A stretch of 57,096 nucleotides of DNA, filler included, from Circinaria calcarea (lineage: Eukaryota): NCBI GenBank assembly GCA_051942165.1. It is 6 parts of 6 records of this genome, joined end to end, with 100 filler letters (N's around TTAATTAATTAA, not from the genome) between each part and the next. Parts side by side here need not be neighbours in the genome. Positions count along the whole stretch, not along the records: positions 28,627 to 38,050 come from JAVECS010000936.1; 5 more parts are not named here. The stretch is one strand, 5' to 3'. The notes beneath the pieces are model-generated. The model was not told the DNA's origin, made no database searches, and was given only the letters and a program-made list of their open reading frames with translations. Position 1 is the stretch's first letter; every line of letters begins with the position of its first letter. The position numbers were made by a program, and so were the translations under genes. Positions 759 to 47,674 of the stretch are shown in pieces.

Positions 759-3447
759 ATGACGCAACCACCGTTGCGATCTCCTTCGCATTTATTACTT
801 CGTCCCAAAGCGGCGGCAACCTCCAGTAGCACTTCTCTCGAGGCACTCGTCACGACGAGTCCACCACCTCATTCACGGGCATCATCTCAAAGCCGGCAAC
901 CTTCGCCCTTGCAGGCTTCTCCGCCCACGGATGTCTCCGACAAAGCTACCTCCACCCTAATTCGACGTGTACTCGTTGCACATTCCCATGGAGGAACTAC
1001 GGAATCCAAACCCATTGACGAACTGTTACCGCCACTGACTAGTAGCAATGATGTTGACCTGCAGCTCTACGCCATTGTTGCGATTGTGGTCAAGGAATTC
1101 GTGGCTAGCTGGTATGGGAAGATTACGCCGGATCAGAGCTTCGTCGAGGAAGTGGTGAGGCTTATCGCCCATTGTACCAGAGCTCTAGAACAGAGGATCA
1201 GGAGCCTGGATCTGGAGATTCTCGTTTTGGACGAGATTCCAGAACTCGTCGAAAGACACATCACCGGTGGGCGATCACCGCGTACAAACCGTTTGATAGG
1301 GCTAGCTGACGAAGGCACTTGGTAGCGTTTAGGGCGAGCCACGAGTTTTTGCGCCGTCCTCCCATTGCTACCCGTCCAGCAACTGTATATCACGCTCTAA
1401 TACCACATCCAGCATTATCACCCGTGCCCGATCCCGATGTCCCGTCCACAATTGGTGAGCAGTCAGGAAATGAAGCAGCCTACAGACAGCTACTCGTCCA
1501 AGGTATATTGGCTGTGCTGCTGCCGGCTGAAGATCTAGTCAATCCCTGTCTGCGAACACTCCTAGCAGATGTCATGGGGGAGATGGTACTGGGCAATGGT
1601 GTTGGCGGTAAGGCATGTGAAGGTTGGCTGATTTGGGAAGGCATCACGAAGGTTGTGATGAATGTCAAAGCGCGAGTCACGCCGAAAGAGAGCAGAGGAG
1701 AGACCGTACTCGACGGGAGAAGTCGACTGGAGAAGTTCGGGCTATTGTCGGAGAAGGATGAAGAGCCAAAGCCACAGATGGACCGAAGCAGGTCACCGGT
1801 CGTGTCGAAGATTATCTGGCGCTTCCTTCAGTACGGTTATTTGATTTTCACAACCATCCGGTTTATCGCCGTCGGCTTCGTGACAGCATCCTCCGGTCCG
1901 TCGCGCTCTCCTCCCACGTCCAGCGCAGCGAATCAAGACGTCATTCCAACGAAAGAGAGAGCCAAAGCGCGAGCATCCAAGCGCCCAATCCTGACGGGTA
2001 AGATCTTCTCGCTGATATCCCTCATCCTCGGCCTATCTGAGCGCATGCCGTGGCTATGCGGGTCATTGTCTCTCGTCCAATATCACCTCATCCACAGCGC
2101 ATTTAAGGTGGGCGCCACGGACGGCCTTCTTGACAAGTAAGTGACGAGTCCTTTGATCCTGCCCTCCCGTTGGCTGCGAAGCTGCATGCGGGCGTTCCGT
2201 CCTCGCATGAGCTTTTGGTCACTTGACCTGGTATTGTCTGCATGCATGCGCCAATGAAAGATACGCTTGTCGTATCCTTGTCATGACAGCGCGGAGCGGC
2301 ATCGTTTTAATGCATCTGCATCCCGGCCTGGCTCGTTACCATAGCGCCGCCGGCTTGCATCTGATAAAACCCACGAATTCCTTTTGGCGACCACACGCCT
2401 CGATCATCCTGCGCCGGATAAACTCAAATTCCCGTTCGGGTCGAAAGTTCATTTCCCCAACTCTGCTCCTTTCTCCCATCGCTGACCTCGCTTGGGGATG
2501 CTCACGGTACATCCGACCATCTGGAATACATCGCACATGTGCAACGTTGAGCTCCCACGATTTCTGTTGCACTGGGCCGACTTTCCCATCGGAGCTGTTA
2601 TGAAACGTTGTTCTGCGACCTTGTTCCTATCCAGCTAACCTCGCCTTACGAAGCCATTGATCTTGATGTGCGCAGACCCACTTGCATAGAGACTGTCTAC
2701 TCCCTGTCCTCGCGCATCCTCTTCCTCGTCCTATCATATCTACTCGTCAAGCTTTATACTTTAACATTTTCTTAAGATCTTGCCTGCGTCTCGGGCTGTA
2801 CATCGACTTCCGATTTGATTCTTTTTGGCCACTCCATACAACACTTGCTCACCCGGCATGACCCGAAATCTTGCCGGCCTTTATCAGAGCCCAGCGTTTG
2901 CCTCGGCGTTGTCTGCTGCTCGTGGAACCTCACTAATTGATACACTTTACCGCCTAGATTCCTCCATCACCTCGTCACAACGCATGTTCTCCGGCCCTCT
3001 TTCCTCCCACCCCTTCTTCTCACCCTTCGAACCTCCATCTTCCCTGCAAATACCCTCGCTCCTGCTCGACCTATTCCATCGCCCGCGCAACAAGCAGCTA
3101 TAAAAAGGATTTGCGCCTTAGAAATTATTAGCTGCATCCCGGGCATGGTGGGAAAGAGATTCTTACTCGGGTCTTCCCGTGCACATCATCATGATAAGGT
3201 GTTGGTCACAAATAGCCAGACAGGAGATGGTGAGTTGCCGGTAGCAGAAGATGTTAGGATAGCAGAGCTAGATGACCGAGAAATCATGATCAAGGAGTTT
3301 GAGGCCGTGCTAGACGTTTTTAGCGATTCGTACTGTAATAAACATCTCATCTATGGACTACTCGAGCTGGTGCTTGTCAGGCTGGTACCTGAAATTGGAG
3401 AAAAAGGCGTCAAGCAGTTGATGGAGGAAAGGTTAGGGGAGGGATGA
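759..3447 (+). CDS. PXA (PX-associated) domain protein with Nexin_C-like C-terminus; 3 exons (759-1266, 1326-2136, 2958-3447)
   Basis: Motifs LLPPLTSSNDVDLQLYAIVAIVVKEFVASWYGKITPD and LDVFSDSYCNKHLIYGLLELVLVRLVPE are typical of fungal PXA proteins. GT..AG introns at 1267-1325 and 2137-2957 join the ORFs in frame. Confidence 0.85.
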
Positions 3448-6400
3448 GATGGGTGAGGCCGGATAAGAGGCATATCTCTTCAGGTCGTTCCATGTGTTTA
3501 CTAAGTATGAGGTGGTGTGGTACATGAAGGGATTCCCCTCGATATATATACTGAGCCATTCTTCAGTCCACCCTCTTCATTCCTGCAACAAGACACTATT
3601 CAAACCCAAGTATACATAGGTAATTTATAACCGATCAGCAGCTTTGCATTGGTCCCGTTCAGGCGCAATCCTTATCTAACTTTAGTGGCCTTTCCTTGAT
3701 GTGATCCACCTCCACTTATTGTGGTAAACACATTTAGGTTTACGTGCTGCGAAATACCAAGGTACTCGATCAGAGGTCTCTGATTGGCTAGAAGCAGCCA
3801 AGTATACTAGCAGCCACTGTCCCATACAACTTTCCCGAGAATTCAGTCAGGTTTTGAAGAGCATTATTCAGCCAGGATGCTGCCAGTTCACACAGGTCGA
3901 AAACAAGTGCCTGCTGCCTGATTGGCTTTCTCTCCCGTGACTTTCTCTCCTCCCTCTGCCGCATCGTATACTCCAGTGCTATTTGACTGACACCTCTCTT
4001 TTCCTGGGAGATCGCATTGTGCCTGCCCTCCATCTCGCTTGGTCGTTAAGTTCGCGTTGAAAGCAGTTGCTTTGCGAAATTATCGCTTCTGATCTTATTC
4101 CATTTAGCAGCAGTGGTTCAGCCGGTAGGGGCTTCTCCTTTTGCCCAGGCGTGGGCAGGTTCAAACCGGTACAGTTTGGTCGTACGGTCGGTTCTACATA
4201 GCCACTTTTACGATCATGTGAGGCTTAGCACAGAACTGGAGTTCAGCTAATCGCTCGCGGTGCAGGCCTTGCTCTTGGTGCTCTGTTCTCTTTAGGTAAG
4301 ACTGGACAACCACACGCTTTAGGAATTGAACGCCTTCGCATGAGTCGAGCGAACTGATGGCTGAGGTATAATGAGAAGGGAGACGAGGCTACATGGAGAG
4401 TGGAATTTACCTCCCGAATTCTTGACCTTGAAATCCTAGGGCAGCTTTTAGTGCCGGTGGTGGAGAGAGAAGACGCCATGGTGAACTACTTTTCGACAGA
4501 CGTTGCCGGAATAATCATTGGCTACCACAACCAAACTCTTTCCAAAACACATCGCGCTACAATTCCGCGTTTAGATTTGTGTGTTTTATGGAAATCTTGC
4601 GGTCAAAAAGTGGCCTAGCAGAGCTACCTGGGCAATGTCTTGCGAGAATCCGACTTTACCACGAGCTCATGGATCCTTATGTGAGTCCGCTGAATTATGC
4701 TAGGGAAAAAAACCATGCGAAGTCTTTCATAGGATCACCAGACAAGTTGAAGCTCTTCAATTCACCATCAGTAAAACCCTGCCAGGCCCTTTTTCCCGCA
4801 CGCGTGTTTGGACACAGTACACGGCTTGCTATCGGAAAACTCGACTGATGGTGCCTTTAACTTTAAAATGTCCGACGCACAAAATGTATCCTTTTCTAAA
4901 TTTAAGTGCCATTAGAGCTGTCATGGTCGGTCCAGGCCGGGTGGCGCTGCAGTGACGATATGCTAATGCCATATGCCTTTTGTGGACAAACGCCGGAATG
5001 TCAAGGCTGCTACTTATACTATCAATCGTTACTAGCTTACTGCGTCTGGCCACAGCAAGGTCGATTTCCCAAGTATCGAACCTCATCCGTCAAGCCACTG
5101 GATTCCCATATCCTAAGACGGAACAGATGTCTGCCTTGCTGCTCTGAAGCTGCTTTATGCAATAGGGAATCAAAATGCCGAAATCCGCTGCCAGAAAACT
5201 GACCGACAACCATGGCTTATATAGCCTATATCCTAATGAAATGGTGAAGGTGAAATGATTCTTTTCGGTTCTGGTTGTATATTCCTTTTCCTAGCCGGGG
5301 GAAAATTTGCACAATACTGATTCACTGTCGAATAGTACCAACCTTTCGCGCAAAGGGCGAGAACAGACAGGGCAAACACCACGAACCCCCTAATTAGGCT
5401 ACTTTTGGCAAAATGATAGCAAGCACCGATCTGAAAGGCATCGATCGGGAGTAACGTCACCGGAATAAGGGAAAGAAATCACCGGAGAAAGGGTATGAAA
5501 TGGCTGGAAGTTCAAACGTACAGCGTCTTTCGTCACTGGCATATGACATCAAAAACAGCAAACTACATCAACTCCCAACTCTTCCATCTTGATAAATGCG
5601 TTCCGACTGTTAGAATGTGTCAGCACGCCCTGCTAGTAATGGGCTAATGCCGATGCTGCGCGTATCGGGGTTACGTTAAGGGGCTCAGGGTCCAGTGGGC
5701 ATGCCCTGCATTCTTACTATTTCACAAGCGCTTTTTCTACATTCTTTTTTCTTACTATTAAATCAGTTAATCTTTCCACATTGTAACATCCATATGTATA
5801 TACGCGAGAACTACAATCAGATTCAGCGATACACATGTTATAAGCATCTCCGAGTTGGAAAATGTACTGATACCGTCAGCACAGAGAATGGGCGTTATGC
5901 TTTGTGGCGTGTTTCAGTTTTGAAGGTTTATGGTTTCCTTGGGTTTTGGATACTTTCTTTGCTTGTTTTGTCTTTTAGTTATCAATACCCCTCTTTTTGA
6001 CGCACATCGTTCAGCTTCTCTCTGTAACCCAGCCCTGTAGACGTTAACAGTGCGGCTGAAAACATAATGCTTGAAAAAATTTGTACTTTTTGCCGCGGCC
6101 GAGAAAATTCCATTTGAATATGCAAGAATTGAAGAAGATCGATTGGCTTTTCATATATCGGAACGAAGGGGTTGAAAATTTATTTATTACTGATCTTAGT
6201 CACCGTTTCCTCCAAGTCCATGCAAAATAACTCTATTTATTCAACAACTTTCTTTTTTTATCATCTTCATAATTGTTTCTCTACCGGGTCAGACATGCCA
6301 TCCTTAATAAACTGTCATAACCAGGTACACTAGACGTGCTAACAAATGTCTTATATACCTTCCTTACTACATTGTTTTTTTCTCCTCGGCTATCTCCTCC

Positions 6401-7287: not shown

Positions 7288-8330
7288 TCAGCTGTGTGAT
7301 AGAGTCTGCTTAGATTCTGAGGCTAAAAGCACAAAGCTCACACCCAATTTTTCGGGTTCACTGATTTCCGGATGCAAGTTGCTCTTCTTCGTGCACTGCA
7401 AGTACTTCATGATTCGAAGTGCCCGTTCAAAGATCCTTGGCGTATAAGCAGAGGGTGACCCATAGATGCTTTGGTGGAGAGGCATAACCCAAATTCGGCA
7501 CTCTATTGCGCCAATTGCGAGTGGGATGAACCAACAATATCGCCATAGCATCTTGCATCATAACATCGTCGCATGGCTAGCAATGTGTTGCGATAGATCA
7601 CCTTCTGTTCTGGCTCCTTCTGTGCCTTGGAGAAGATTGAGTGGTCGAGAGCCTCGAACTCTTCCATACTTCGACAATATCCGTGCCTAGTGTTTCCAAG
7701 TCCGTGCATGGCTCGACACCGAGATGTAAGCTCTGTCAGAAGACTATCGTTACCCGTTCCCGGTACTTCGAATTCTGTCTCGACAACCCTCTCGTTAGGC
7801 CCTCCGATAATCGGTAGCTTCTTTCGTCTCTAAACATTTGGCTAACGTCACAGGACCTGCTGGTGATAACGATCTGCAAATTCACCAAAACCAAAGGTCC
7901 CACGATGTGGTAGGCATGCGGAGCTTCATCGAATATGCTATGGCTGACTCGAAGTAATGCTGATGCAAATCTCAATGAATGGTGACCTGTATATGGCAAC
8001 TCTCTCCCTGCCAGAAATGCGAGCGTAGACCCAGAACCGGATTTTGGGGGTTAACGAACGCCGTTAATAGCATAATGTCCGGGCCATCTTTGTCATCTTG
8101 GCTGTCAGTATCCTCTGCTGCACTAGCACGTCATAACAGTTGCAGGATTAACGAAATGCCAACGACACATGTGTAGATTGTGACTATCCTGTAACCACAG
8201 CCAATACTGCTCTTGTGGTCTCTGAATGCAGTAATTATGGAATAATAGACAGGGAAACACCGTTTAAAACACCTCGCCGGAGCATTTGCCAAGAAAAAGA
8301 TGGTGATTTTGGTAGTGGCATGACATGGGA
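7288..8330 (-). pseudogene. Fragmented fungal hypothetical (F-box-like) gene relic
   Basis: Short ORF pieces in shifting frames, one with SALLRVSHSIFDEA, which resembles the ALLRVxRxIYxEA motif of fungal F-box-like proteins. No continuous frame. Confidence 0.35.
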
Positions 8331-8941
8331 CGTAGAAGCAGTCAATCAGTTCCCAGCCCCCGCAAGTAGAAGCACACAAGTCCCAAATATCTGCAAAGCA
8401 AGCAAAACTCGATCAAAGGTTTAGGGATCTGGGGTTGAGGTATATCATCCGCTCAAAATGATTACTTGGAATAGGTTTAGAAAAACTCTGACCGGAGAGA
8501 AGGAATTAGAGCTTGCTTCCGTAAAGACTCTAAAGCGGGGAAATTTGAAAAAACATAGACGGGGGTTGCGACAAAGGACAAGGCGAGGTCGAATTTCTTT
8601 GCAGAGGGAACGGTTATGTTCTACCTAGCTGCCTTCATTATGTGCCCTATTATCTCATTACAGGTATATATTTCTATTGCTAATCTATGCCTAGAGGAAC
8701 GTCTTGACCTTCCGACACAAGAACGCCTAGGTGCAGCAACTGCGCTTTTATGCCCTGATGTGGACGCCAAAGGCAAGGCACAGGTAGGTGGAAGAATTGG
8801 CTGGTAGTGGCGTACGGGGTTCATGTTGTAACAATCAAAGAGCCAAGTGTGCGGATTCGCAGGAAGACGATGAAGGATTATCTAAGTCTCTCCGCCCTGT
8901 TCCAAGGAACCCAGACCCATAGAAACCATGCAACTTACGCC

Positions 8942-9445
8942 TTATGTTGACGTTTGCATGATGTCTGAAATGCTGCTAGCCGCCGTGGTTGCGAAATACC
9001 TCACATCAACATCTTCGTCCTGCTGCAGCTTTTCAAGGTTGGGAAGTATTTGCTGCTGTATGAGTTCATGGCTTTTCGATGAGGGACCACCAGAATACCC
9101 CGACTTTTCCATTGATAAAATTGTCCCTTCGGCAGGTAAGCGCTTGAGGACTTCGATGAGGACCGCGTAGGATTTAGCAACGTTGAACCGAATGTTTGGG
9201 ATATCGTCCGCAACCAGCCTATCCATCATTGGTAGGATCGACGTTTCAATAACCTCCAGATTTATTGCAGGTGCCAAGGTCTATCGTTCATTAGCTAGGA
9301 AGAACATTAAACGTAGGTTACTAACAGATATTGCGAAGCATGTGGTCATTCTATATAGGTAGTTTGGATGTTGGCCCATCGCCATAACCTTGGGAATGAT
9401 TGCCTCGCTTGCCCATTCCACTCCGAATACCTCGGTGAGCTTCTT
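8942..9445 (-). CDS. TPD3: Protein phosphatase 2A scaffold (A) subunit, C-terminal part; 5' end cut by contig edge
   Basis: HEAT-repeat text [48 protein letters not shown]. One short intron at ~9281-9327. Confidence 0.92.
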
Positions 9446-9545
9446 NNNNNNNNNNNNNNNNNNNNNNNNNNNNNNNNNNNNNNNNNNNNTTAATTAATTA
9501 ANNNNNNNNNNNNNNNNNNNNNNNNNNNNNNNNNNNNNNNNNNNN
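9446..9545. other. Artificial contig linker (N-TTAATTAATTAA-N)
   Basis: 100-nt spacer carrying a 12-mer that places stops in all frames. The identical spacer recurs five times. Confidence 0.97.
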
Positions 9546-18987: not shown

Positions 18988-19087
18988 NNNNNNNNNNNNN
19001 NNNNNNNNNNNNNNNNNNNNNNNNNNNNNNNTTAATTAATTAANNNNNNNNNNNNNNNNNNNNNNNNNNNNNNNNNNNNNNNNNNNN
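18988..19087. other. Artificial contig linker
   Basis: N-TTAATTAATTAA-N spacer. Confidence 0.97.
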
Positions 19088-28526: not shown

Positions 28527-28626
28527 NNNNNNNNNNNNNNNNNNNNNNNNNNNNNNNNNNNNNNNNNNNNTTAATTAATTAANNNNNNNNNNNNNNNNNN
28601 NNNNNNNNNNNNNNNNNNNNNNNNNN
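28527..28626. other. Artificial contig linker
   Basis: N-TTAATTAATTAA-N spacer. Confidence 0.97.
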
Positions 28627-28634
28627 TCCCAAAC

Positions 28635-31600
28635 CTAGATATAAAACATCGTATTCTTCAAATTCGGATGAATCAGCACATCCTCTGCCCTCGGCTCCCC
28701 TAATACCCCCTCTCCCACTACACTCTGCGCGGGCGTCGCACTCGGCGTCGCCATATCAAACAGCCCACTCAGATAACACCGCGCCCTCTCGCACACAATA
28801 TCTGCATAATACGCCGGCGGGCAAATACTCACCGCCTTGGTCGCACGTCCGAACAGGTAGCACATACTGTGTGTCAGGTCCTCGAGCGCATCCGCGGCGT
28901 TCTGGTGCGGCGGAGCGACCTTGCGCTTGGTGAAGATCTCGTCCAGCACGATGTAGTAGTGGGCTGGGCGCGCCGTACCCTGGATAGCGGCATGGGCTTG
29001 TATGAAGAAGTCCCAGTTGCGGGGCTCGGTGACGCCGCGATCGACGCAGGTGCCGTTTTTGGGGTTGCCGGAGCGATCGGCATCGGCTTCCTTGGTGGGA
29101 TAGAAGCGCGTGTGGTGGCGCTTGCCGACAATGACGATGGTGAATTTTGGAAGCCCCTTTTTGGTGTCGGCGGCCGGGTATACGTTGGCGCAGGCTTTGC
29201 GAATCAGGGGGAGCTCGGTGTCGATGACGATGTCGTATTGCCCTTCGGAGACACCGTCCCGGTAGATGAGGAGGTTTTCGGGGAGGGAAGCGTGTTTGCC
29301 TAGGGTTTTCCAGAGGCTGAGGCGTGAGGCGATCATGCTATCGAGTTCGGTAACCATTTCCTTGCGGGACTCTTGGATACGCAGGTCGGCGGGCCATTGG
29401 CCGAGCCAGCGGTCGACGCTGGCGACGACAGCAGCGACGCTGGGTGCGTTCGGTGCGGATCCGGGAGATGGGTGCGTCACGTCGATACCGATCACCATGG
29501 TTTTCTCTTCGTTGATGATGCCTAGGTTTGTATTGTGAACCAGTTGATTGATGCCGCCTAGCTTCAGGTTGAATTTGAGAGTGACATTGGCGTTATATTG
29601 GTCGTTTTCCTTCACAAATTTTGAACCTACGACGCATATCGTGTGGGTACCGAGCTTAACATCCCCGATGAATTTGACGCGATTGTACAGTTGCCTATCT
29701 GCCCTTGGCAGAACAACGAGTAGGAGTCCGAAAGGGTTTTTCAGATTAGCTTCAAGTGTTGGGTCGTCGGGACTATTAATCGCGACTTCCTTCCCCCTCA
29801 GCGGAGCGGCAGCTGTTATGCCCACATCTTGCAGTGCTTTGTGGAATTTAGCGATAGTGGATTGTAAGCTAGCCAAATTATATTCGTTTGAGCCGCCCAT
29901 AGAAATGATTAGATACGACCACCGGGGTAAGTTGGCTGCAGAGTTGAGCCTGTATTTTTCCATGTTCCAGCTCCCAAATCTGACATTAGCCTGTACCTCC
30001 TTTTTATACCGGACGGATGGGGCTGGCAGGACGCGTCCCAGGACCGTGATCAAATTCGGAGGAATAGAAATACCGAATCGACTCAAAGTGGCATTATCTT
30101 GTGGCAGAAGACCCACTGTCCTGGGACCGTTCATGGTGATGGAGCTAGCATTGTCCCAAGGCTTACGAACGGCGAATCGGATCATCTGCTGCGTCTGGTT
30201 TGGATCAAGCTTTGAATTTGAGTTCTGTCCAGGCATGACGACACAGACCTCTGCCGGCAGATAGCTCGGATTTTCACGATTTCCAACGTTAACAACGGGT
30301 ATGTTAGGGTTCGCTATCACCCTGTTGTGGACTACCTGCAGTGTAAGCAGATCATAGAGTGAAGAGTTGAGTGGATTGTACAGAAGTACGTACCGGTTTT
30401 GAAGAAATCGTAAACGCTTATGTACCTGCCCTGGGAAGTACTTGAACCTGGTTGAGTCGGTATATTTTCAGATGGCCCCCCTTTCTTGCCTTTACCTTTC
30501 TTACCGCTAGATTTACTTGGTTGACCCGTCGCCGTACCAGACACCGCAGACGAGCTTCCAATAGCTTGGGGAGAGTCACTCAGGAAGAACTCTACTTCTT
30601 TTGCATTTGCACCATGCTTTTGCACCCGCGGTGGATGCTCCAGACCATGGCCATCATTCTTGGTAGCTAGTCCAAATATAGTTTTGACTCTCGGGACGAC
30701 CTGACCAGTTCTGTTTGTCTTCTCTTTCAAATGGGTCGTTCTAACTCGGACTCGTTTGATGAAGGACTCTACCTTAAATAGGTTGAAGTGTTGTTCCCGG
30801 CCGTACTTCTCAATCAACTGGTTCAAAGGAATTGGATCATAGAAGGCTCCGTGACTGACGTTGATGTTCACCAAGATACGGCTGGCCGCGACTCGTACGC
30901 TTGAGAAGAATCCTCTGAAAGCAATGAGACCTGCTCCAAGATCCCCTCTATCGGAGCCTTGACCCAAAGCAAAGGCTTTACTGCTTCCGATGGTGGAAAT
31001 CGCAGTAGAGGACTTTGCGTAGTGACCTACCATTATATTTAGAGCCTGAATAATTGGAAGCTTGTTTGAATAAGCCGCATTCACGTTGGTAGAGGTTAGA
31101 AAACCTGTAAGCTCGGCGACAGTGAGAGTTCCCGTGTCTTCAACGTGTACCGTGTAGCTCAATGCATTATCTCGCGGCTCATCTTCACCTTCGACTCGGT
31201 ATTTAATCACAGTTTTCACCTCGCCACTACTGAGCTTCCGGCGAGAGATCAACGTGGATTTGAAATCGGTAACTATATCATCCCGGAAATCTATATATCC
31301 AGGGGCTTCTAACAGCAGTCTTATAATTTGGGTAAGTTTTCTACCCGTCGCAGCTGGTAACACATTAACGTGGTAGCGGTAGAGCACCAGGTTTGGTGCC
31401 GGTAATAATTCGAAATAATTGGTCCACAGCACAACTTTTTGCCCTCTCGTCCCGTAGCCTGGCCGGCGAGGAAAATTATCAGTAAGCCCTAGGCGAGCGG
31501 CATCCAGCGGGCCGCCAGATGAGAGATTCTTCTGGTACAGATCCTCTATTCTTGTAGCCTCGGCATTAGGAGCGGGAATGATGTGACCTGGAGGTCTTGC

Positions 31601-31792
31601 ATGACAAGTTAGCCACCAAGCTTCTGCTGAGTTACCACAGGACACTGACGAATAAACATGCACAGGGCCTCCACCGCGTCCTCCACCTCGCCCGCCTCGA
31701 AAGGATCCATCGCCACCACGACTACTGCCTCGATCGCTACTACCTCTTCCACGATCGCCGCGACCACGACCACCTCGATCTCGTCCTGACAT
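28635..31792 (-). CDS. qde-2: Argonaute, QDE-2-like (RGG N-terminus, N, PAZ, MID, PIWI); introns ~31596-31649 and ~30332-30393
   Basis: RPGYGTRG..WTNYF, GFFSSVR, YLPAEVC, LKFNLKLGGIN, GIDVTHP, IYRDGVSEGQY, KRHHTRF, GTARPAHY, PPAYYADIVCERAR and C-terminal TMFYI. Acidic slicer-site residues are retained. Confidence 0.95.
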
Positions 31793-32440
31793 TGCACTTG
31801 TTATAAATACTCAAGGGAAAGAGTTTGGAAGAGACAAGGTAGGCTCTATGTTTGGAGTATAATCACCCAAATGCTCTGGAAGCAGTACGCTTCGTGTTTG
31901 TGAGTCTCGGCGGCAGCTGGCGGCGTTTGGCTTCCACGAGCGGGGTAATTCTGTGTAACCGTAATAATCGGCTGGGAGCCGATATTATATCGCAGGAGTC
32001 GTCAATGCTCGCACGACTTCTTGTCATATGCATTCCTTCAGCTACTTCATCGATCGAATAGGAAATAGCTGACCGTAACGGATTGGAGAAGCTGGGGTCC
32101 ATACCTCCAACAGCGCTCCCACTGTGGACTCCTTCCCTTTGTCTTTGAGCCTTCGCTAAGGCCCTCTCCCTCCGTTCTTAAAGGTTTCGCCAAGATGCTG
32201 TGACACCGCAAGCTCCCAAACTGGCTATGCTTCGCACTCACTTTCAAACGGAGTTGAGGGTCCTGTATGCTCTCTATCTACTTGTATTTAATACTTGTTA
32301 GCCGAATGTCGCTAACGAATTGCTCCGCAGGAACTATGACTTACCTTCATGCCGGCTCCCCGGCCGTATGCAACATTTGATGCTGTACATCGCTGGATAA
32401 CGACAAACCACCCTTATTTAAATCTATGATATTTCTTTAA

Positions 32441-33106
32441 ATGGCTCATGCAGTCTTACACGCCCCAAACCCAAGGAACATATACATTATTGGCGCTCAA
32501 TCCAGCGGTAAAACCACTTTGATAGCCGCTCTCAAACTTTATTTCGAAGATAAGTCTGAATTGGCCTCAAGAGCTATGACCGCTCAAAAGCCCTATATAC
32601 TAGGAGAGGTCGCACGGCGAGTTCTGCAGGACCATAACTCCACAGGCAAAGACGTATCCGAATCAAAGTCGCGAGCTCTGGAGTTACAAACCTTGATTTT
32701 GGAAGCGCAATACGAAGCAGAAAACGCCATCAAAGACTCCTGGTTTATTTCCGATCGTTCAGGCGTGGACGCTATCGTCTATGGCAAATGCTACGTTGGT
32801 GAGAGTGGCGTGGAGAAACTTTTGGATACCATAGCATGGAAGCATTTGGAAAAGTCCTTGCGGGACTCTCTGATAATTGTCTGCGAGCCCGTAGATGCAT
32901 GGCTTAAGGAGGACGGACTGAGGTTCATGCCCAAAAGCCGCTCGGCGAGGACTAAGCTGGTTTCCTTCATCCACGAGAGGTTTTGTGATTTCCTTAGTAC
33001 TGCTGGTTTTCAGTATGTAGTGCTTCCAAACAATCTACTTGAATTAGGTAGCAGAGTACATTTCGTTATTGGCGAGTGGGAGAAGTTCGGGGAGAAGCTT
33101 GGATAA
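32441..33106 (+). CDS. AAA_28 (NadR/Ttd14-like) P-loop protein, nucleoside/nucleotide kinase fold; intronless
   Basis: IYIIGAQSSGKTTL Walker A, EVARRVL, ISDRSGVDAIVY (DR motif of the dNK/TMPK-like kinases), EDGLRF. Confidence 0.8.
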   Translation: MAHAVLHAPNPRNIYIIGAQSSGKTTLIAALKLYFEDKSELASRAMTAQKPYILGEVARRVLQDHNSTGKDVSESKSRALELQTLILEAQYEAENAIKDSWFISDRSGVDAIVYGKCYVGESGVEKLLDTIAWKHLEKSLRDSLIIVCEPVDAWLKEDGLRFMPKSRSARTKLVSFIHERFCDFLSTAGFQYVVLPNNLLELGSRVHFVIGEWEKFGEKLG

Positions 33107-33693
33107 TTGAGTTATTTACAAGGAAGCAAATACGGAATCAGAATACACTACATCCTACGGCATCTACTACCAAAGGTCTTGCTAGAAGAACAATTTAATC
33201 AGCAGAGAGTCCATACTATTCTTATGAATGTCCATCAAATGCTAGCAAAAACGAATCAAAGGCCCAAGAATGCTACAGCAGGAGAACGACCGGCTGAGCA
33301 GGGAAAGGAACGATTAGACTCGAGGGTTAGCCTGCTGTACAAAACATCACCTTCGTCGGAGAAATCTTAGAACCAGATTGTCCAAGGGAGTGGGACTACA
33401 CCTGTATTCATGTCGTAAGCTACATATTAAACATAGCCAACGAGTCACTTATAGCTTGATGATCCATAAGCCATTCTAATCGTAACTGGTATACTTGCTC
33501 CAGGACACAAGTTGATACACCCGAAATTAAAGAACGCAAAACTTGAAAACAGCCTTTAAATCGACAAAGCCTCCTAGCCCTTGAAACCCAGTTCCTTCGC
33601 ACTCGGTCTTCTAATCCTTCCAATGCTCATCTCAACCCATGGCGTAGCCGTCCAGCGTCGTGGTATAGTTATTCTCACATCGACCATGCAATG

Positions 33694-34704
33694 TCACCAT
33701 TGCAATTCTTTATTTTCGCCAGTTATATACGCAGCGCTGGCTGAACCCTTGCTCCAGTCATATATTCCACCTCTTCTTACAAAACTGTCTTGGTCCCAGT
33801 AAACTTGGGAGAGCGCTGCAAACACACCAATGTCCAGTATCGATGACGAAGGTTTACGTCCATCCCTATCCAAGAATCGCATATATTCATCTAGAATTAG
33901 ATACGATTTTGCCATAAGATTGTTTGGTTCTGCGATGAAACATGATTGGTGCTGATGTCGAAAGCAGAACCGTTGATACTCGTCATCTGTGATCTGGAAT
34001 TTGCGAACATCGCGAAGAGTCTCATCGGAGTCGTTCTCTCCAGCGACAAGAAGAACTTGAAAGCATTTCCATCGAAATGGCTGAAGTCGCTCCACGATCC
34101 CATTCATATCTTCCATGTGATTGAGGCGACATACGACGGTGTTGAGTTTGAACTTGATCCCGAATTCCTTGCACCAATCTGCTACCTGAAACAGTTTCTT
34201 GACCTGGTCTCCGCTGCCTCGCCCGATCTCGATGTTTGTCTGCTCATAGAAGGAATCACAAGAGACAGCTAAAATGTCGATGTGTTTGCCGTACTGCCTC
34301 AAAAAGCTTTTGTCTACTAGACTGCCATTTGTGACGATTGAAACGGACTCGAGACCTAGTTGTTCCTTGGCAAAGGCGACCATGGTTCCAAGAAGCGGCT
34401 TATACAAGAAAGGTTCGCCGCCTGCGAAGTTGATCTTCCTCATACCGGCCGCTTTGAGCAAGGCCAGACCACGTTTCGAGTTCCCTTCTGATTGTTTGTA
34501 TGATGTCGTCGCCGTATGGAAACAGAATCCACAGCTTTTATTACATTGCCGCGTGAAGTGAAAGTTGACCGATACAGGAACGTCTGACCGGAGCCTAGGA
34601 GAAAACCGACGACGGAGGTATCGACTAGTCAGTATAAGGCCAATCGCGATGACGAGAGTAATGAAGGCAGCTGTACTTCCAAGTAGGTACTCTGCGAGGA
34701 CCAT
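33694..34704 (-). CDS. RSAD2: Viperin (radical SAM ddhNTP synthase); intronless
   Basis: SVNFHFTRQCNKSCGFCFHTA (CxxxCxxC), KINFAGGEPFL, SIVTNGSL, AVSCDSF, FKLNTVV, RWKCFQVL, SYLILDEYMRFL, FVRRGGIYDW. N-terminal hydrophobic helix and C-terminal Trp. Confidence 0.96.
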   Translation of the reverse strand: MVLAEYLLGSTAAFITLVIAIGLILTSRYLRRRFSPRLRSDVPVSVNFHFTRQCNKSCGFCFHTATTSYKQSEGNSKRGLALLKAAGMRKINFAGGEPFLYKPLLGTMVAFAKEQLGLESVSIVTNGSLVDKSFLRQYGKHIDILAVSCDSFYEQTNIEIGRGSGDQVKKLFQVADWCKEFGIKFKLNTVVCRLNHMEDMNGIVERLQPFRWKCFQVLLVAGENDSDETLRDVRKFQITDDEYQRFCFRHQHQSCFIAEPNNLMAKSYLILDEYMRFLDRDGRKPSSSILDIGVFAALSQVYWDQDSFVRRGGIYDWSKGSASAAYITGENKELQW

Positions 34705-34902
34705 GTTGACGTTGCTGTTCTAAGAATATTGCGACGCAAAGAAGATCAACGATAATTAAGGATTTGCAACCTCTCTGCACCACTTATGAGCTTTGATCTC
34801 TCTGCCAAAGCGGGGTATCAAGAGTCAGCGCTTTGTGTAACTTCAAAGAATCTTCCCCTGATCGCTGTTAAGATATCCTCCAGAATCATCTGCTGGGTCG
34901 AG
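34705..34902. promoter_or_regulatory. Probable bidirectional promoter shared by viperin and the NMP kinase
   Basis: Only 198 bp separate the two divergent ATGs (34704 on -, 34903 on +). Confidence 0.6.
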
Positions 34903-35671
34903 ATGGATTGGTCAAGCAGTTCTTACTCCCTTGTCTACGTTCTTGGTAAGTGTCAATAACATACTTCATAAAACCAAACTAAACAAAGCCGTAGGAGCGC
35001 CTGGATCGGGGAAAGGGACCATCTGTCATAAGCTTTCACAGGACTATGACTTTCGCCACCTTTCCGTTGGTGACTACATGAGAGAGTTGAGCCGAGATTC
35101 AACTTCCAACAATCGAGAAATCATAGAGGACCATCTACGGCAAGGAAGACTGCTGCCAACACAAGTCATATTACCAATTCTGCACAAGAAAATAGACGAA
35201 GAGAAAGAAAAAGGTCATCACCACTTTCTGATCGACGGGTTCCCAAGGCAGTTGGCGCAAGGTGTTGAGTTCGAGAAGCAGGTTACATTTTCCTACAATG
35301 TATACCAACTCAAAAGCTAATGACTCAATAGATTGGAAGTCCCACACTTGTCATCCTCTTCCAATGTCCCAAAGACATAGCTCAGCAGCGCTACTTAAGT
35401 CGTAGGTTACCAGACAGACTTCTTGATAACGAGGAGATGTTCAAAAAACGATTTGAGGAATTCGATAAAGAGAACTCAAATATTGTGGATTATTACCGAT
35501 CAGCAGGAACGTTAGAAGAGGTTGCAAGCGTTCCTACCACTTATCAAATCGTTTCCATTCTAACAAGCTTAGATCGATTCAAGCAGTGAAACAGAGGTAA
35601 CCTATACAAGATTGCTTGCAACCATAGGAAGAAAATACGAATGGAAAAGTAGAACCAGTCATAGCATCTGA
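34903..35671 (+). CDS. UMP/CMP kinase (adenylate kinase family); exons 34903-34945, 34995-35281, 35332-35520, 35573-35671
   Basis: Spliced product MDWSSSSYSLVYVLGAPGSGKGT..HLSVGDYMRE..FLIDGFPRQLAQ..DNEEMFKKRFEEF..IDSS. Short LID as in UMP/CMP kinases. All three GT..AG introns keep frame. Confidence 0.88.
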
Positions 35672-36027
35672 CCTTATTCTATTGTTAGAAAACTCGTCAT
35701 TCCCAAAGGCTTGTGGGAAATGCTAGATGTTAGAATAGGATCGTAGCAAAGGTTGAAATAGAATTGGATTTTAAAATTCCACGATATCATGTAAACCTAT
35801 GGGTCCTAGCTTGATCACGTGCTAGTCTGCTGCCTTGCCGAAAGCAAGGAGCCATGGGACAATGGTCGGTTTCTCGCGTTTTTCAATCACACTGCAGTGA
35901 CACTTTCCTCAGGCGCGCGAAGCTTCCTTATGCTACACATCACAGAGACATTACATAGCGGTATGTTGAAGCACCACTTGATGACTCCACTAGCATTCAC
36001 TACTGATTCCTACTCGAACCCATTCAG

Positions 36028-36693
36028 ATGAGACCCACAGCCAAACCCCTTTTCCGTCGATTGGTTATTGAAGTTGAGCGGAAGTTCAGGTGTGAACCTG
36101 GATCTATGGATCGCCTTGATGCAAACCAGGGACTGCCTGCCTTTCGAGTCTTGAAATATCTGGGGCGAAGTAGTTTCAAGGACACATACTACGATCGTGA
36201 TGAGACCCTGTCTTCAAATGGAGTATGGGTACGGAAACGTAGCGGACGATGGCAGGCCAAAGTCCGCGAAGGGGGTGATTACGCAAACTCGCAATTCGGA
36301 GAGCTGTCAGAACCGAAGGAGATAGCTCAGATGATCCGGAAATATAATCTTGACGCTTACCCTCCATCAGATGACTTTGGTTTAGAGAAAACCGCACAAT
36401 ATACTACTATCAGGGACGCATGGAAAGCGGATGATAGATTCGAAATCGTCCTTGATACTACCGATTTCGGTCATTCTGTTGGTGAGGTGGAATTACAGCA
36501 AGTAATAGAAACAAACAGTGATGGGGGGCCTCCGATAGCCGTGAGGCAAGATACGGCAAAAGAGATGGATCGCCAAATCGAGGCTTTCATGCAACACTAT
36601 TCATGGGCCTTCCCAACTGGAAAACCTGTGGGGAAACTGTCGGCATATTTTACTTGGAAAAGAGGATCACATTGTCCAAGTTCGCACGGCTGA
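36028..36693 (+). CDS. CYTH / triphosphate tunnel metalloenzyme, thiamine-triphosphatase-like
   Basis: IEVERKF (ExExK), DTYYD, WVRKRSGRWQAK, VLDTTDFGHSVGEVEL, GKLSAYF. Confidence 0.88.
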   Translation: MRPTAKPLFRRLVIEVERKFRCEPGSMDRLDANQGLPAFRVLKYLGRSSFKDTYYDRDETLSSNGVWVRKRSGRWQAKVREGGDYANSQFGELSEPKEIAQMIRKYNLDAYPPSDDFGLEKTAQYTTIRDAWKADDRFEIVLDTTDFGHSVGEVELQQVIETNSDGGPPIAVRQDTAKEMDRQIEAFMQHYSWAFPTGKPVGKLSAYFTWKRGSHCPSSHG

Positions 36694-36849
36694 TTTGCCG
36701 ATGGATCTCAATACCATCCATATGCGAGTCACTATGGTTCGGCAGAGAAGAGACCGACATTAGCGTAAGGGAAAGTGGAGGGGGCGGGGAAAAGAAAGAA
36801 GGGGATACTCATGGCGGTGATAACAGTGTTTTCCATATACGGTTAAGGA

Positions 36850-38050
36850 GATATGTTTTGTGTAATTAAAACTATGCGTTATAGCTCAAGGTCTTTAAAG
36901 TATTGGTATCGTATCAGTTGCATATTGTGTTTCTTGTGTGTTCTCTTATGCTTTTTTGGTTTATCTTTCCTGTTAAATTATGTTTTTTTAGAACGCTCTG
37001 GCGAGAGTAGTTTTCTGAGTCTAGCCCTTTATAATTATACTCTATTCATGCATTATTTAATATCCTATCTCATGCTCTGCTTCATGCTCTGCTTCATACT
37101 CTGCTTCATGCTCTGCTTCATGCTCTGCGCCACACCATGCACCATATTTATATTATACTCCATGCCATACTCCATGCTATATGCTATGCACCACGCACTA
37201 TGCGCTATAATCATGCTATTATAATATATCAGAATAATAGCCTATGATCGTAATGTATTAAAGTAATTAAAGTAGCTAAAATAGTTGATCGTTGAAGCGG
37301 TACTACTAAATAAGCTATTCATGGAGGGGGGTGCTGCTAATTACTAGCTATTTACGACCCCGAGTTGTTAAGTGAGACGTGTAGCTAGGACATATGCTAA
37401 ATTGGCCAATCGATTAATAGCTAGCTAAATAAGCTGATTGCTAATTAATTAATGTTAAAAGCTTATTTATTTATTGCTTCACAGCATAAATACCTCTAAT
37501 AGAGACCGCACGCCGTCGAGCTTGCTGATAGAATAGGTGGTGAAAGGTTGCTCCGGTATAAGTTATAAATTAATAAAGAATAATAATATAAAGGTCGCCA
37601 ATATTTAACTGCTTCACGATATTTTTTTTATATTTTTAAATAAAAAAAAATCTTCTGCCTAATACTAGAGTCTAGGATTTTATTTAAATAAATAAATTAT
37701 ATAAACAGCTCGCCGTTGATTTTAAGAAATATATTTTTATTTTTTATTTTTCTATCTGCCGGTCCCTCTAATAAAATAATTTCTATAATTAATATATTTA
37801 TCTCGGTAGGCTTTTCTTTTCGGAATACTTTTTCGTGTTGAGGAGATAAGCCGAGTTTTTAATATATATCGAAAAAATTTATTAATTATTGGCATTATAT
37901 TATGTTTTATATAATTAATTTTTTTTTTCGAATTATTTTTAAAGCACGTAAAGATCGGTTTAACGGAAAAAAAAATTTAATTATAATATTATCGTCCCGT
38001 GCGCCGGCCTGTAGAATTATAATATATTTATTAATTATAATAATAAAATT
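36850..38050. mobile_element. AT-rich, RIP-like degenerate repeat/transposon DNA
   Basis: Abrupt shift to very AT- and TpA-rich sequence with no credible ORF, running to the contig end. Confidence 0.55.
37071..37130. repeat. 12-bp tandem repeat (CATGCTCTGCTT)x5, with degenerate copies to ~37215
   Basis: Units read directly at 37071, 37083, 37095, 37107 and 37119. Confidence 0.9.
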
Positions 38051-38150
38051 NNNNNNNNNNNNNNNNNNNNNNNNNNNNNNNNNNNNNNNNNNNNTTAATT
38101 AATTAANNNNNNNNNNNNNNNNNNNNNNNNNNNNNNNNNNNNNNNNNNNN
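38051..38150. other. Artificial contig linker
   Basis: N-TTAATTAATTAA-N spacer. Confidence 0.97.
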
Positions 38151-47574: not shown

Positions 47575-47674
47575 NNNNNNNNNNNNNNNNNNNNNNNNNN
47601 NNNNNNNNNNNNNNNNNNTTAATTAATTAANNNNNNNNNNNNNNNNNNNNNNNNNNNNNNNNNNNNNNNNNNNN
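47575..47674. other. Artificial contig linker
   Basis: N-TTAATTAATTAA-N spacer. Confidence 0.95.

Follow-up and report, generated by a model that had tools for sequence, protein, structure and literature searches.

A viperin gene head-to-head with a UMP/CMP-kinase paralogue in Circinaria calcarea, and its CYTH, AAA_28 and Argonaute neighbours

In vertebrates, the viperin gene RSAD2 lies head-to-head with CMPK2 and the two genes are co-induced. A viperin gene of Circinaria calcarea (assembly GCA_051942165.1) also faces a nucleotide kinase gene, and the locus raises the question of what this kinase is and what the genes around the pair may contribute. The window, meaning the whole stretch of DNA analysed (57,096 nucleotides), consists of contigs of similar length joined by N linkers, and genes on either side of a linker are not neighbours; only 28627-38050 (G000:C936, 9424 bp, JAVECS010000936.1) is contiguous with the viperin locus. 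On this contig the gene order is Argonaute (-), AAA_28 (+), viperin (-), kinase (+) and CYTH (+), with intergenic gaps of 648, 587, 198 and 356 bp in that order (Table 1). An earlier note on this DNA had described the viperin-kinase pair, which stands, and had overlooked the flanking CYTH, AAA_28 and Argonaute genes. On balance, and with a confidence slightly above even, we favour a reading in which viperin, kinase and a CYTH off-switch form a three-gene module that abuts a separate antiviral pair of Argonaute and AAA_28 genes.

Viperin and the kinase that faces it

The protein encoded by the viperin gene scores 245.9 bits against NCBIfam model NF038283, which passes the cut-off of 180, and 357.8 bits against TIGR04278, which is below the cut-off of 450. 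Its radical S-adenosylmethionine CxxxCxxC motif reads CNKSCGFC (residues 54-61), and the N-terminal tail is hydrophobic, with a hydropathy of 2.44 across 19 residues starting at residue 7. The closest solved relative was 7N7I (E 3e-135, residues 34-335), identified as Trichoderma virens viperin in passages of Shomar et al. (bioRxiv 10.1101/2023.09.13.557418), which also describe the UTP-selecting pocket of fungal viperins, with Arg257 in T. virens. In an alignment counted by hand, Arg280 of the window viperin (within FLDR) pairs with chain residue 279 of 7N7I in the β8 loop; this residue would correspond to native Arg257 provided that the chain has a 22-residue tag. The window protein, known from its sequence, thus has an Arg in the same loop position as the T. 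virens enzyme (7N7I, 6B4C). [quoted passage not shown] The substrate range of fungal viperins can be widened by the C-terminal tail, according to part of a further preprint (10.64898/2026.09.10.750538). As the first step of the mechanism that we favour, a membrane-anchored viperin would turn UTP into the chain terminator ddhUTP; here the family membership is observed and the activity is judged from close solved relatives.

Opposite viperin, four exons yield an open frame of 205 amino acids and a stop; the three introns between them, which are 49, 50 and 52 nt long, have GT-AG borders. The earlier note had described divergent start codons 198 bp apart and a four-exon kinase only partly present in the open reading frame (ORF) track; the ATG positions bear out the former, and the stop-to-stop ORF list, which gives a 152-residue piece only, the latter. 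Two comparisons support the exon model: a 208-residue Polytolypa relative is alignable through exon 4 (51% over 189 columns), and further paralogues within the genome are interrupted at these three positions too. A public model labelled Circinaria calcarea (P0020, 153 residues, 100% identical) looks truncated, since it begins downstream of the P-loop and continues into intron 3.

Exon 2 matched the Pfam ADK family (E 2e-23), the closest solved relative of the kinase was yeast uridylate kinase (1UKY), and the alignment shows the P-loop GxPGxGKGT, the DGFPR motif and a short lid. The top NCBIfam model was TIGR01359, which describes the UMP-CMP kinase family and has a cut-off of 207.6; exon 2 by itself scored 90.3 bits, and the full-length relative P0024 scored 125.2 bits. 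No match to Thymidylate_kin (PF02223) was found at E <= 0.1 for exon 2, P0024 or the AAA_28 protein, while all four plasmid viperin kinases did match this family. The ADK match, 1UKY and the missing PF02223 match agree with the previous assignment of the partner to the adenylate/UMP-CMP family and not to CMPK2. The locus resembles the vertebrate RSAD2-CMPK2 pair (termed 'neighboring' in passages of the cited literature) and the prokaryotic pairs of viperin with thymidylate or deoxynucleoside kinases in that viperin sits beside a nucleotide kinase, here head-to-head with 198 bp between the ATGs, and differs from RSAD2-CMPK2 in that the facing partner is of the adenylate/UMP-CMP family instead of the CMPK2/thymidylate kinase type. 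Among the 12 plasmid viperin regions found, six were read, and four of these six have a kinase of the thymidylate or deoxynucleoside kinase type.

Convergence on a CMPK1-type partner had been proposed in the earlier note and is correct, yet it was already in print: passages of Shomar et al. (10.1101/2023.09.13.557418) report that the nucleoside monophosphate (NMP) kinases beside certain fungal viperins are CMPK1, with an origin distinct from CMPK2, suggest convergence, and note that these kinases coincide with UTP preference. The window shares with those fungal viperins a UTP-pocket viperin, a neighbouring CMPK1-family kinase and the same proposed role. It differs in what is described around the pair, as the text sections of that preprint mention neither gene orientation nor a neighbouring CYTH, AAA_28 or Argonaute gene. 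As the second step, a dedicated CMPK1-type kinase would lift UMP to UDP and so sustain the UTP supply, the role proposed in print, and the 198-bp spacer, a candidate bidirectional promoter, probably turns on viperin and kinase together.

We found 12 ADK matches on seven contigs in a genome search: a canonical URA6-like gene (C179), long-lid adenylate kinases (C49 and C251), a fusion to an HD domain (C1157), two contig-end pieces (C295 and C718), and C936. Identity between the window kinase and the URA6-like protein on C179 is 36.8%. In a 41-row tree the window kinase fell in a 21-row clade with URA6 outside (support 95/92). A smaller tree of 17 rows excluded exon-2 fragments, two rows on long branches and most of the distant rows; there the window kinase fell in a 7-row clade (98/98) apart from the genome's own URA6, and the window kinase and URA6 lie together in a short-lid clade (97/93). 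A topology with the two as sisters was rejected in the approximately unbiased test (p-AU 3.5e-9). URA6 has a single, differently placed intron, and the three intron positions of the window kinase are seen in non-housekeeping paralogues. These comparisons argue that the viperin-linked kinase is a paralogue, not the housekeeping URA6. A separate kinase clade and a distinct URA6 elsewhere in the genome had been expected, and the C179 gene, the trees and the p-AU value agree with both; with a URA6-like gene on C179, the kinase is not the genome's only candidate URA6 orthologue.

A second viperin, 59% identical to the first, lies on C295, head-to-head with an ADK-family gene and with 557 bp between the ATGs. 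In this protein a Lys replaces the UTP-pocket Arg (FLNK). Since it too faces an ADK-family kinase, the viperin-kinase pairing appears to be more than chance. The C295 kinase is broken off at the contig end and a complementary part opens C718 (L033, reverse), so that the two pieces are probably one gene. The intron positions of the window kinase recur in intron 1 on C295 and introns 2 and 3 on C718, and the HD fusion has its three introns at these positions as well. In the trees the C295/C718 kinase lies near URA6 on a long branch, and one clade with the window kinase was not rejected (p-AU 0.26). With this value and the common intron positions, we do not claim two separate kinase recruitments in this genome; one old non-housekeeping lineage for both viperin-linked kinases would be the simpler reading.

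Two further loci touch these families. In the C1157 gene product, an HD_3 domain is joined to a degenerate ADK domain without the Arg of DGFPR, possibly a nucleotidase-pseudokinase from the viperin-kinase lineage. A broken viperin lies on C307; its N-terminal part is interrupted in frame by a stop codon where the motif's first cysteine falls, and a single short piece from further along the protein is also present.

The CYTH gene beside the pair

The gene that follows the kinase encodes a protein with a Pfam CYTH match above the cut-off (E 1e-5). All five of its solved relatives found were thiamine triphosphatases, with the human enzyme (THTPA) at the top (E 8e-13, residues 13-156). It has EXEXK at residues 15-19 (Glu15 to Lys19), Tyr54, Trp67 and Lys78, of which Tyr54 and Lys78 are the equivalents of the Tyr39/Lys65 catalytic dyad, and Trp67 that of Trp53, named for THTPA in part of PMC8615392. 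The protein thus keeps the EXEXK motif, dyad and stacking Trp of the mammalian THTPA (CYTH/TTM) enzymes; it differs in that the similarity is modest and the gene is linked to kinase and viperin.

Two sets of neighbours bear on this linkage. Among 12 longer relatives, five (gene models from Emydomyces, Uncinocarpus, Alternaria, Neofusicoccum and Teloschistes) have an ADK domain ahead of CYTH. These genera span three ascomycete classes. The kinase halves of four lie inside the clade of the window kinase in the 41-row tree, with Teloschistes outside. Even if the models are merged predictions, the kinase-CYTH order would still be the same. A metagenome scan gave 12 viperin loci with two near-whole viperins, one on a 1.3-kb contig without flanks (L013) and the other on a 5.1-kb contig (L014), where a THTPA-like CYTH gene lies tail-to-tail about 240 bp from a viperin 44% identical to the window's. 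As the third step, the CYTH enzyme would strip the terminal phosphate of a pathway triphosphate, most likely ddhUTP, and as an off-switch it may shield the fungus's own RNA synthesis and transcription; the genetic linkage is observed, and the chemistry is our proposal.

The same residues suit another explanation, namely that kinase and CYTH form a thiamine-triphosphate pair, or that CYTH is an ordinary triphosphatase, of the thiamine or the inorganic kind, with its adjacency to viperin incidental or indirect, for example through clean-up of a kinase side-product. The identity of its solved relatives and the retained equivalents of Tyr39, Lys65 and Trp53 fit this explanation, as does the fact that CYTH is the single match of its kind in the genome search. 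Part of PMC8615392 adds that AK1-type kinases yield thiamine triphosphate in a side reaction and that a metabolite-repair role has been proposed for THTPA. Against the explanation, the same source gives this side reaction as more than one million times slower than ATP synthesis. Also against it, the L014 CYTH adjoins viperin although no kinase was seen along the 5.1 kb of that contig, and four viperin-triphosphatase/cyclase fusions exist according to passages of Shomar et al. (10.1101/2023.09.13.557418). The stacking Trp could also hold a nucleobase, and this position is Tyr in one of 10 aligned relatives. We regard the thiamine explanation as rather unlikely.

Several observations weigh against the reading that we favour. 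CYTH retains the Trp (Trp67) that gives human THTPA its thiamine specificity. The first Asp of the lid motif RxDD is replaced by Leu in the kinase, and given this altered motif the activity of the kinase may differ from that of URA6. The joined ADK-CYTH proteins may be merged predictions and do not show viperin alongside, and the other seven of the 12 longer CYTH relatives carry ankyrin, isomerase, acyl-CoA-binding or no extra domains. The L014 CYTH resembles the window CYTH only distantly (E 1e-4). The flanks retrieved for the second viperin pair, 10 kb each way, contained no CYTH, so CYTH would be dispensable. An annotated CYTH within 4 kb was found in none of the six plasmid viperin regions that were read. 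Finally, Argonaute and AAA_28 are seen beside viperin in one genome only.

The plasmid search for CYTH returned no match; no PADLOC model matched CYTH or the kinase, and AAA_28 received weak P-loop matches only. Searches for viperin elsewhere found no locus on viral contigs, no phage match and, in prokaryote genomes, two weak radical-SAM loci. A plasmid viperin of Candidatus Thiodictyon has a gene of the inositol-monophosphatase family directly upstream, a further phosphatase next to a viperin.

Argonaute, AAA_28 and the divergent spacers

The Argonaute gene (Pfam Piwi, E 5e-73; ArgoN, E 1.5e-18) starts at 31792. Like Neurospora QDE-2, its product has N, PAZ, linker and Piwi domains; QDE-2 (2YHB) was the top solved relative (E 1.8e-102), and the three Piwi aspartate motifs align. 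A paralogue on C2373 is 42% identical, and the QDE-2 label stands for likeness.

The AAA_28 gene faces Argonaute and lies tail-to-tail with viperin. Gly23, Lys24, Asp105, Arg106 and Asp110 are invariant in 79 aligned relatives of the protein. Its profile's top solved match was the ribosylnicotinamide kinase NadR (6GYE, E 1.9e-9). The predicted structure (predicted local distance difference test score, pLDDT, 92) also matched NadR best (Z 18.2, root mean square deviation 3.1, 186 residues aligned), and Foldseek agrees; thymidylate kinases (Z 16.0), deoxynucleoside kinases (Z 15.4) and uridylate kinase (Z 11.0) follow. The likeness is to the ribosylnicotinamide kinase domain of NadR (6GYE, 8X7F), and the differences are that AAA_28 is a stand-alone protein of 221 residues with no adenylyltransferase domain, is 18-20% identical, and lies beside RNA interference (RNAi) genes; its score against TIGR01526 was 19.8 bits, with a cut-off of 341. 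Judged by the modelled fold, AAA_28 is likely a small-molecule kinase for a nucleoside or NMP. In comparison with RSAD2-CMPK2, the protein of thymidylate-kinase fold here converges with viperin tail-to-tail, and its sequence is not that of a CMPK2; a role for AAA_28 as a lost CMPK2 partner was ruled out on that basis, with hhalign probabilities of 26% and 9% for its profile against two plasmid viperin kinases.

The genome has two AAA_28 matches, 45% identical to each other, and both genes are head-to-head with an RNAi gene, namely Argonaute on C936 and, on C1689, an RNA-dependent RNA polymerase (RdRP) fused to a superfamily 1 (SF1; AAA_11/AAA_12) helicase, 171 bp away. Because Piwi matches occur on only four contigs and RdRP matches on five, it is unlikely that both copies face RNAi genes by chance, although the pattern was noticed after the fact. 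As the fourth step, Argonaute and AAA_28 would be a separate antiviral unit that adjoins the trio in a defence island, an adjacency observed in one genome, with AAA_28 probably phosphorylating a nucleoside or an NMP in the service of RNA-silencing genes. Neither of two longer AAA_28 matches has an RNAi or viperin domain in its Pfam list, and viral contigs gave seven weak AAA_28 loci, with uninformative neighbours at the two examined. An AAA_28-like domain also occurs at the C terminus of a cytochrome P450 (P0191).

These pairings also bear on a narrower explanation, in which the viperin-kinase pair alone is functional as a unit, and the genes for CYTH, AAA_28 and Argonaute have gathered, without relation to it, in a variable region flanked by repeats. 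The second viperin indeed is accompanied by a kinase but by none of the other genes, and the block terminates, at the end of the contig, in AT-rich repeat-like DNA (GC ~0.31). This stretch has short tandem units near 37070-37200 and resembles a repeat in decay. Against this, kinase-CYTH adjacency in five genera together with viperin-CYTH on L014 is hard to obtain by chance, and both AAA_28 copies face RNAi genes. We consider the narrower explanation quite improbable.

A broader alternative, which we hold to be unlikely, makes all five genes one clustered, co-regulated and co-induced fungal antiviral unit, in which RNA silencing and the synthesis of chain terminators are linked. Such a unit would comprise a promoter element common to Argonaute and viperin and also to an RdRP-helicase gene and one Dicer gene, two kinases of different folds that load and reload pyrimidine and ddh nucleotides, and a THTPA-like off-switch for ddhNTPs. 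AAA_28 would then be, in a proposal that is doubtful along with the unit as a whole, a nucleoside kinase that starts the route from uridine to UMP and UDP, or one that re-phosphorylates ddh-nucleosides that are stripped with the help of CYTH and move between cells. The ribosylnicotinamide-kinase, deoxynucleoside-kinase and thymidylate-kinase type of its fold fits this alternative, as does the compactness of the block, in which five antiviral or nucleotide-handling genes occupy 8.1 kb of the 9.4-kb contig with two short divergent spacers. The other AAA_28 gene, paired with RdRP and with no viperin, speaks against it. Three DNA runs gave partial cover by diverged relatives only, and no single piece spanned the block.

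The remaining observations on such a unit come from the spacers. The motif TGTGTAAC is present in three of four divergent spacers, and GCGGGGTA lies ahead of it in both spacers of the C936 block. The 10-mer form of the motif was found in one of five held-out RNAi genes with upstream DNA, about 130 bp before the presumed ATG of the Dicer gene on C995. Across five regions of 1 kb each, a match would be expected by chance with a probability of about 0.01 for the 10-mer and, given 716 copies, of about 0.1 for the 8-mer. Shuffling weakens the case: 17% of trials gave an 8-mer common to three of four spacers, and 23% gave two colinear 8-mers. With 70 genomic copies in 31.5 Mb, compared with 57 for the control, the 10-mer shows no enrichment; it is missing from four of the five held-out genes, and has no RNAi gene among the 111 ORFs near 30 of its 70 sites. 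As a shared promoter element, TGTGTAAC would be a weak lead.

A genome count of two for the composite pattern was set aside as circular evidence, the pattern having been derived from those two sites. On C995, 13 bases upstream of Dicer are the same as a stretch in the RdRP/AAA_28 spacer, and these contain the viperin-spacer 10-mer. The 10-mer also lies between divergent genes beside an OGFr_N-domain gene and a tRNA-ligase (RNA_lig_T4_1) gene, which may be chance.

Table 1. Positions of the genes, spacers and other features discussed (window coordinates unless a contig or locus is named)
Feature	Position	Strand	Description
Viperin	33694-34704	-	336 aa, intronless ORF; NF038283; relative of 7N7I
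UMP-CMP/URA6-family kinase paralogue	34903-35671	+	205 aa; exons 34903-34945, 34995-35281, 35332-35520, 35573-35671
Divergent spacer viperin/kinase	34705-34902	.	198 bp; GCGGGGTA...TTTGTGTAAC at ~34810-34841
CYTH triphosphate-tunnel enzyme	36028-36693	+	221 aa, thiamine-triphosphatase-like; 356 bp past kinase stop, same strand
Second viperin	C295 (L031) 8206-9180	-	Facing kinase paralogue from 9738 onward, +
Argonaute, QDE-2-like	28635-31792	-	ArgoN, L1, PAZ, L2, Piwi; RGG-rich N terminus; introns incompletely modelled
AAA_28 (NadR/Ttd14-like) P-loop protein	32441-33106	+	221 aa, single exon; Pfam AAA_28 E 4e-23
Divergent spacer Argonaute/AAA_28	31793-32440	.	648 bp; GCGGGGTA...TGTGTAAC at ~31940-31959
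HD_3 protein fused to degenerate ADK domain	C1157 (L036) ~2160-3620	-
Broken viperin	C307 (L035) ~4850-6290	-
AAA_28 and RdRP-SF1 helicase	C1689 (L034) 1-657; 829-6052	-; +
10-mer upstream of Dicer	C995 (L071) 3143-3152
10-mer beside OGFr_N-domain gene	L076 1501
10-mer beside RNA_lig_T4_1 gene	L104 1501
Plasmid viperin, Candidatus Thiodictyon	L108 3086-3910
AT-rich repeat-like DNA	36900-38050
N-TTAATTAATTAA-N linkers	9446-9545, 18988-19087, 28527-28626, 38051-38150, 47575-47674

Viperin partners and ddhNTP turnover

The viperin-kinase pairing was already known; its extension by Argonaute and AAA_28 is new to the literature searched and is seen in one genome. Beyond the four fusions, CYTH as a viperin partner was not found in that literature, which did not take in subscription papers or supplementary tables 5 and 6 of Shomar et al., where neighbours and fusions are listed and such a link may be shown; Argonaute or AAA_28 beside viperin was likewise not found within the same scope. 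The parts of PMC10732462 and PMC12754623 consulted added nothing on viperin gene neighbours.

The locus touches the question of how producers of chain terminators escape self-poisoning and how the turnover of ddhNTPs proceeds, and the accessible literature names no enzyme for either. A CYTH enzyme that travels with a fungal viperin is a direct candidate for ddhNTP turnover. The AAA_28 genes that face RNAi genes would point to a second small enzyme with a likely antiviral role. The coupled five-gene unit, if true, would provide the orphan AAA_28 family with a function and point to ddhNTPs as possible substrates of THTPA-like enzymes, and if the five genes act jointly, the block would be a rare eukaryotic defence island that unites two antiviral chemistries.

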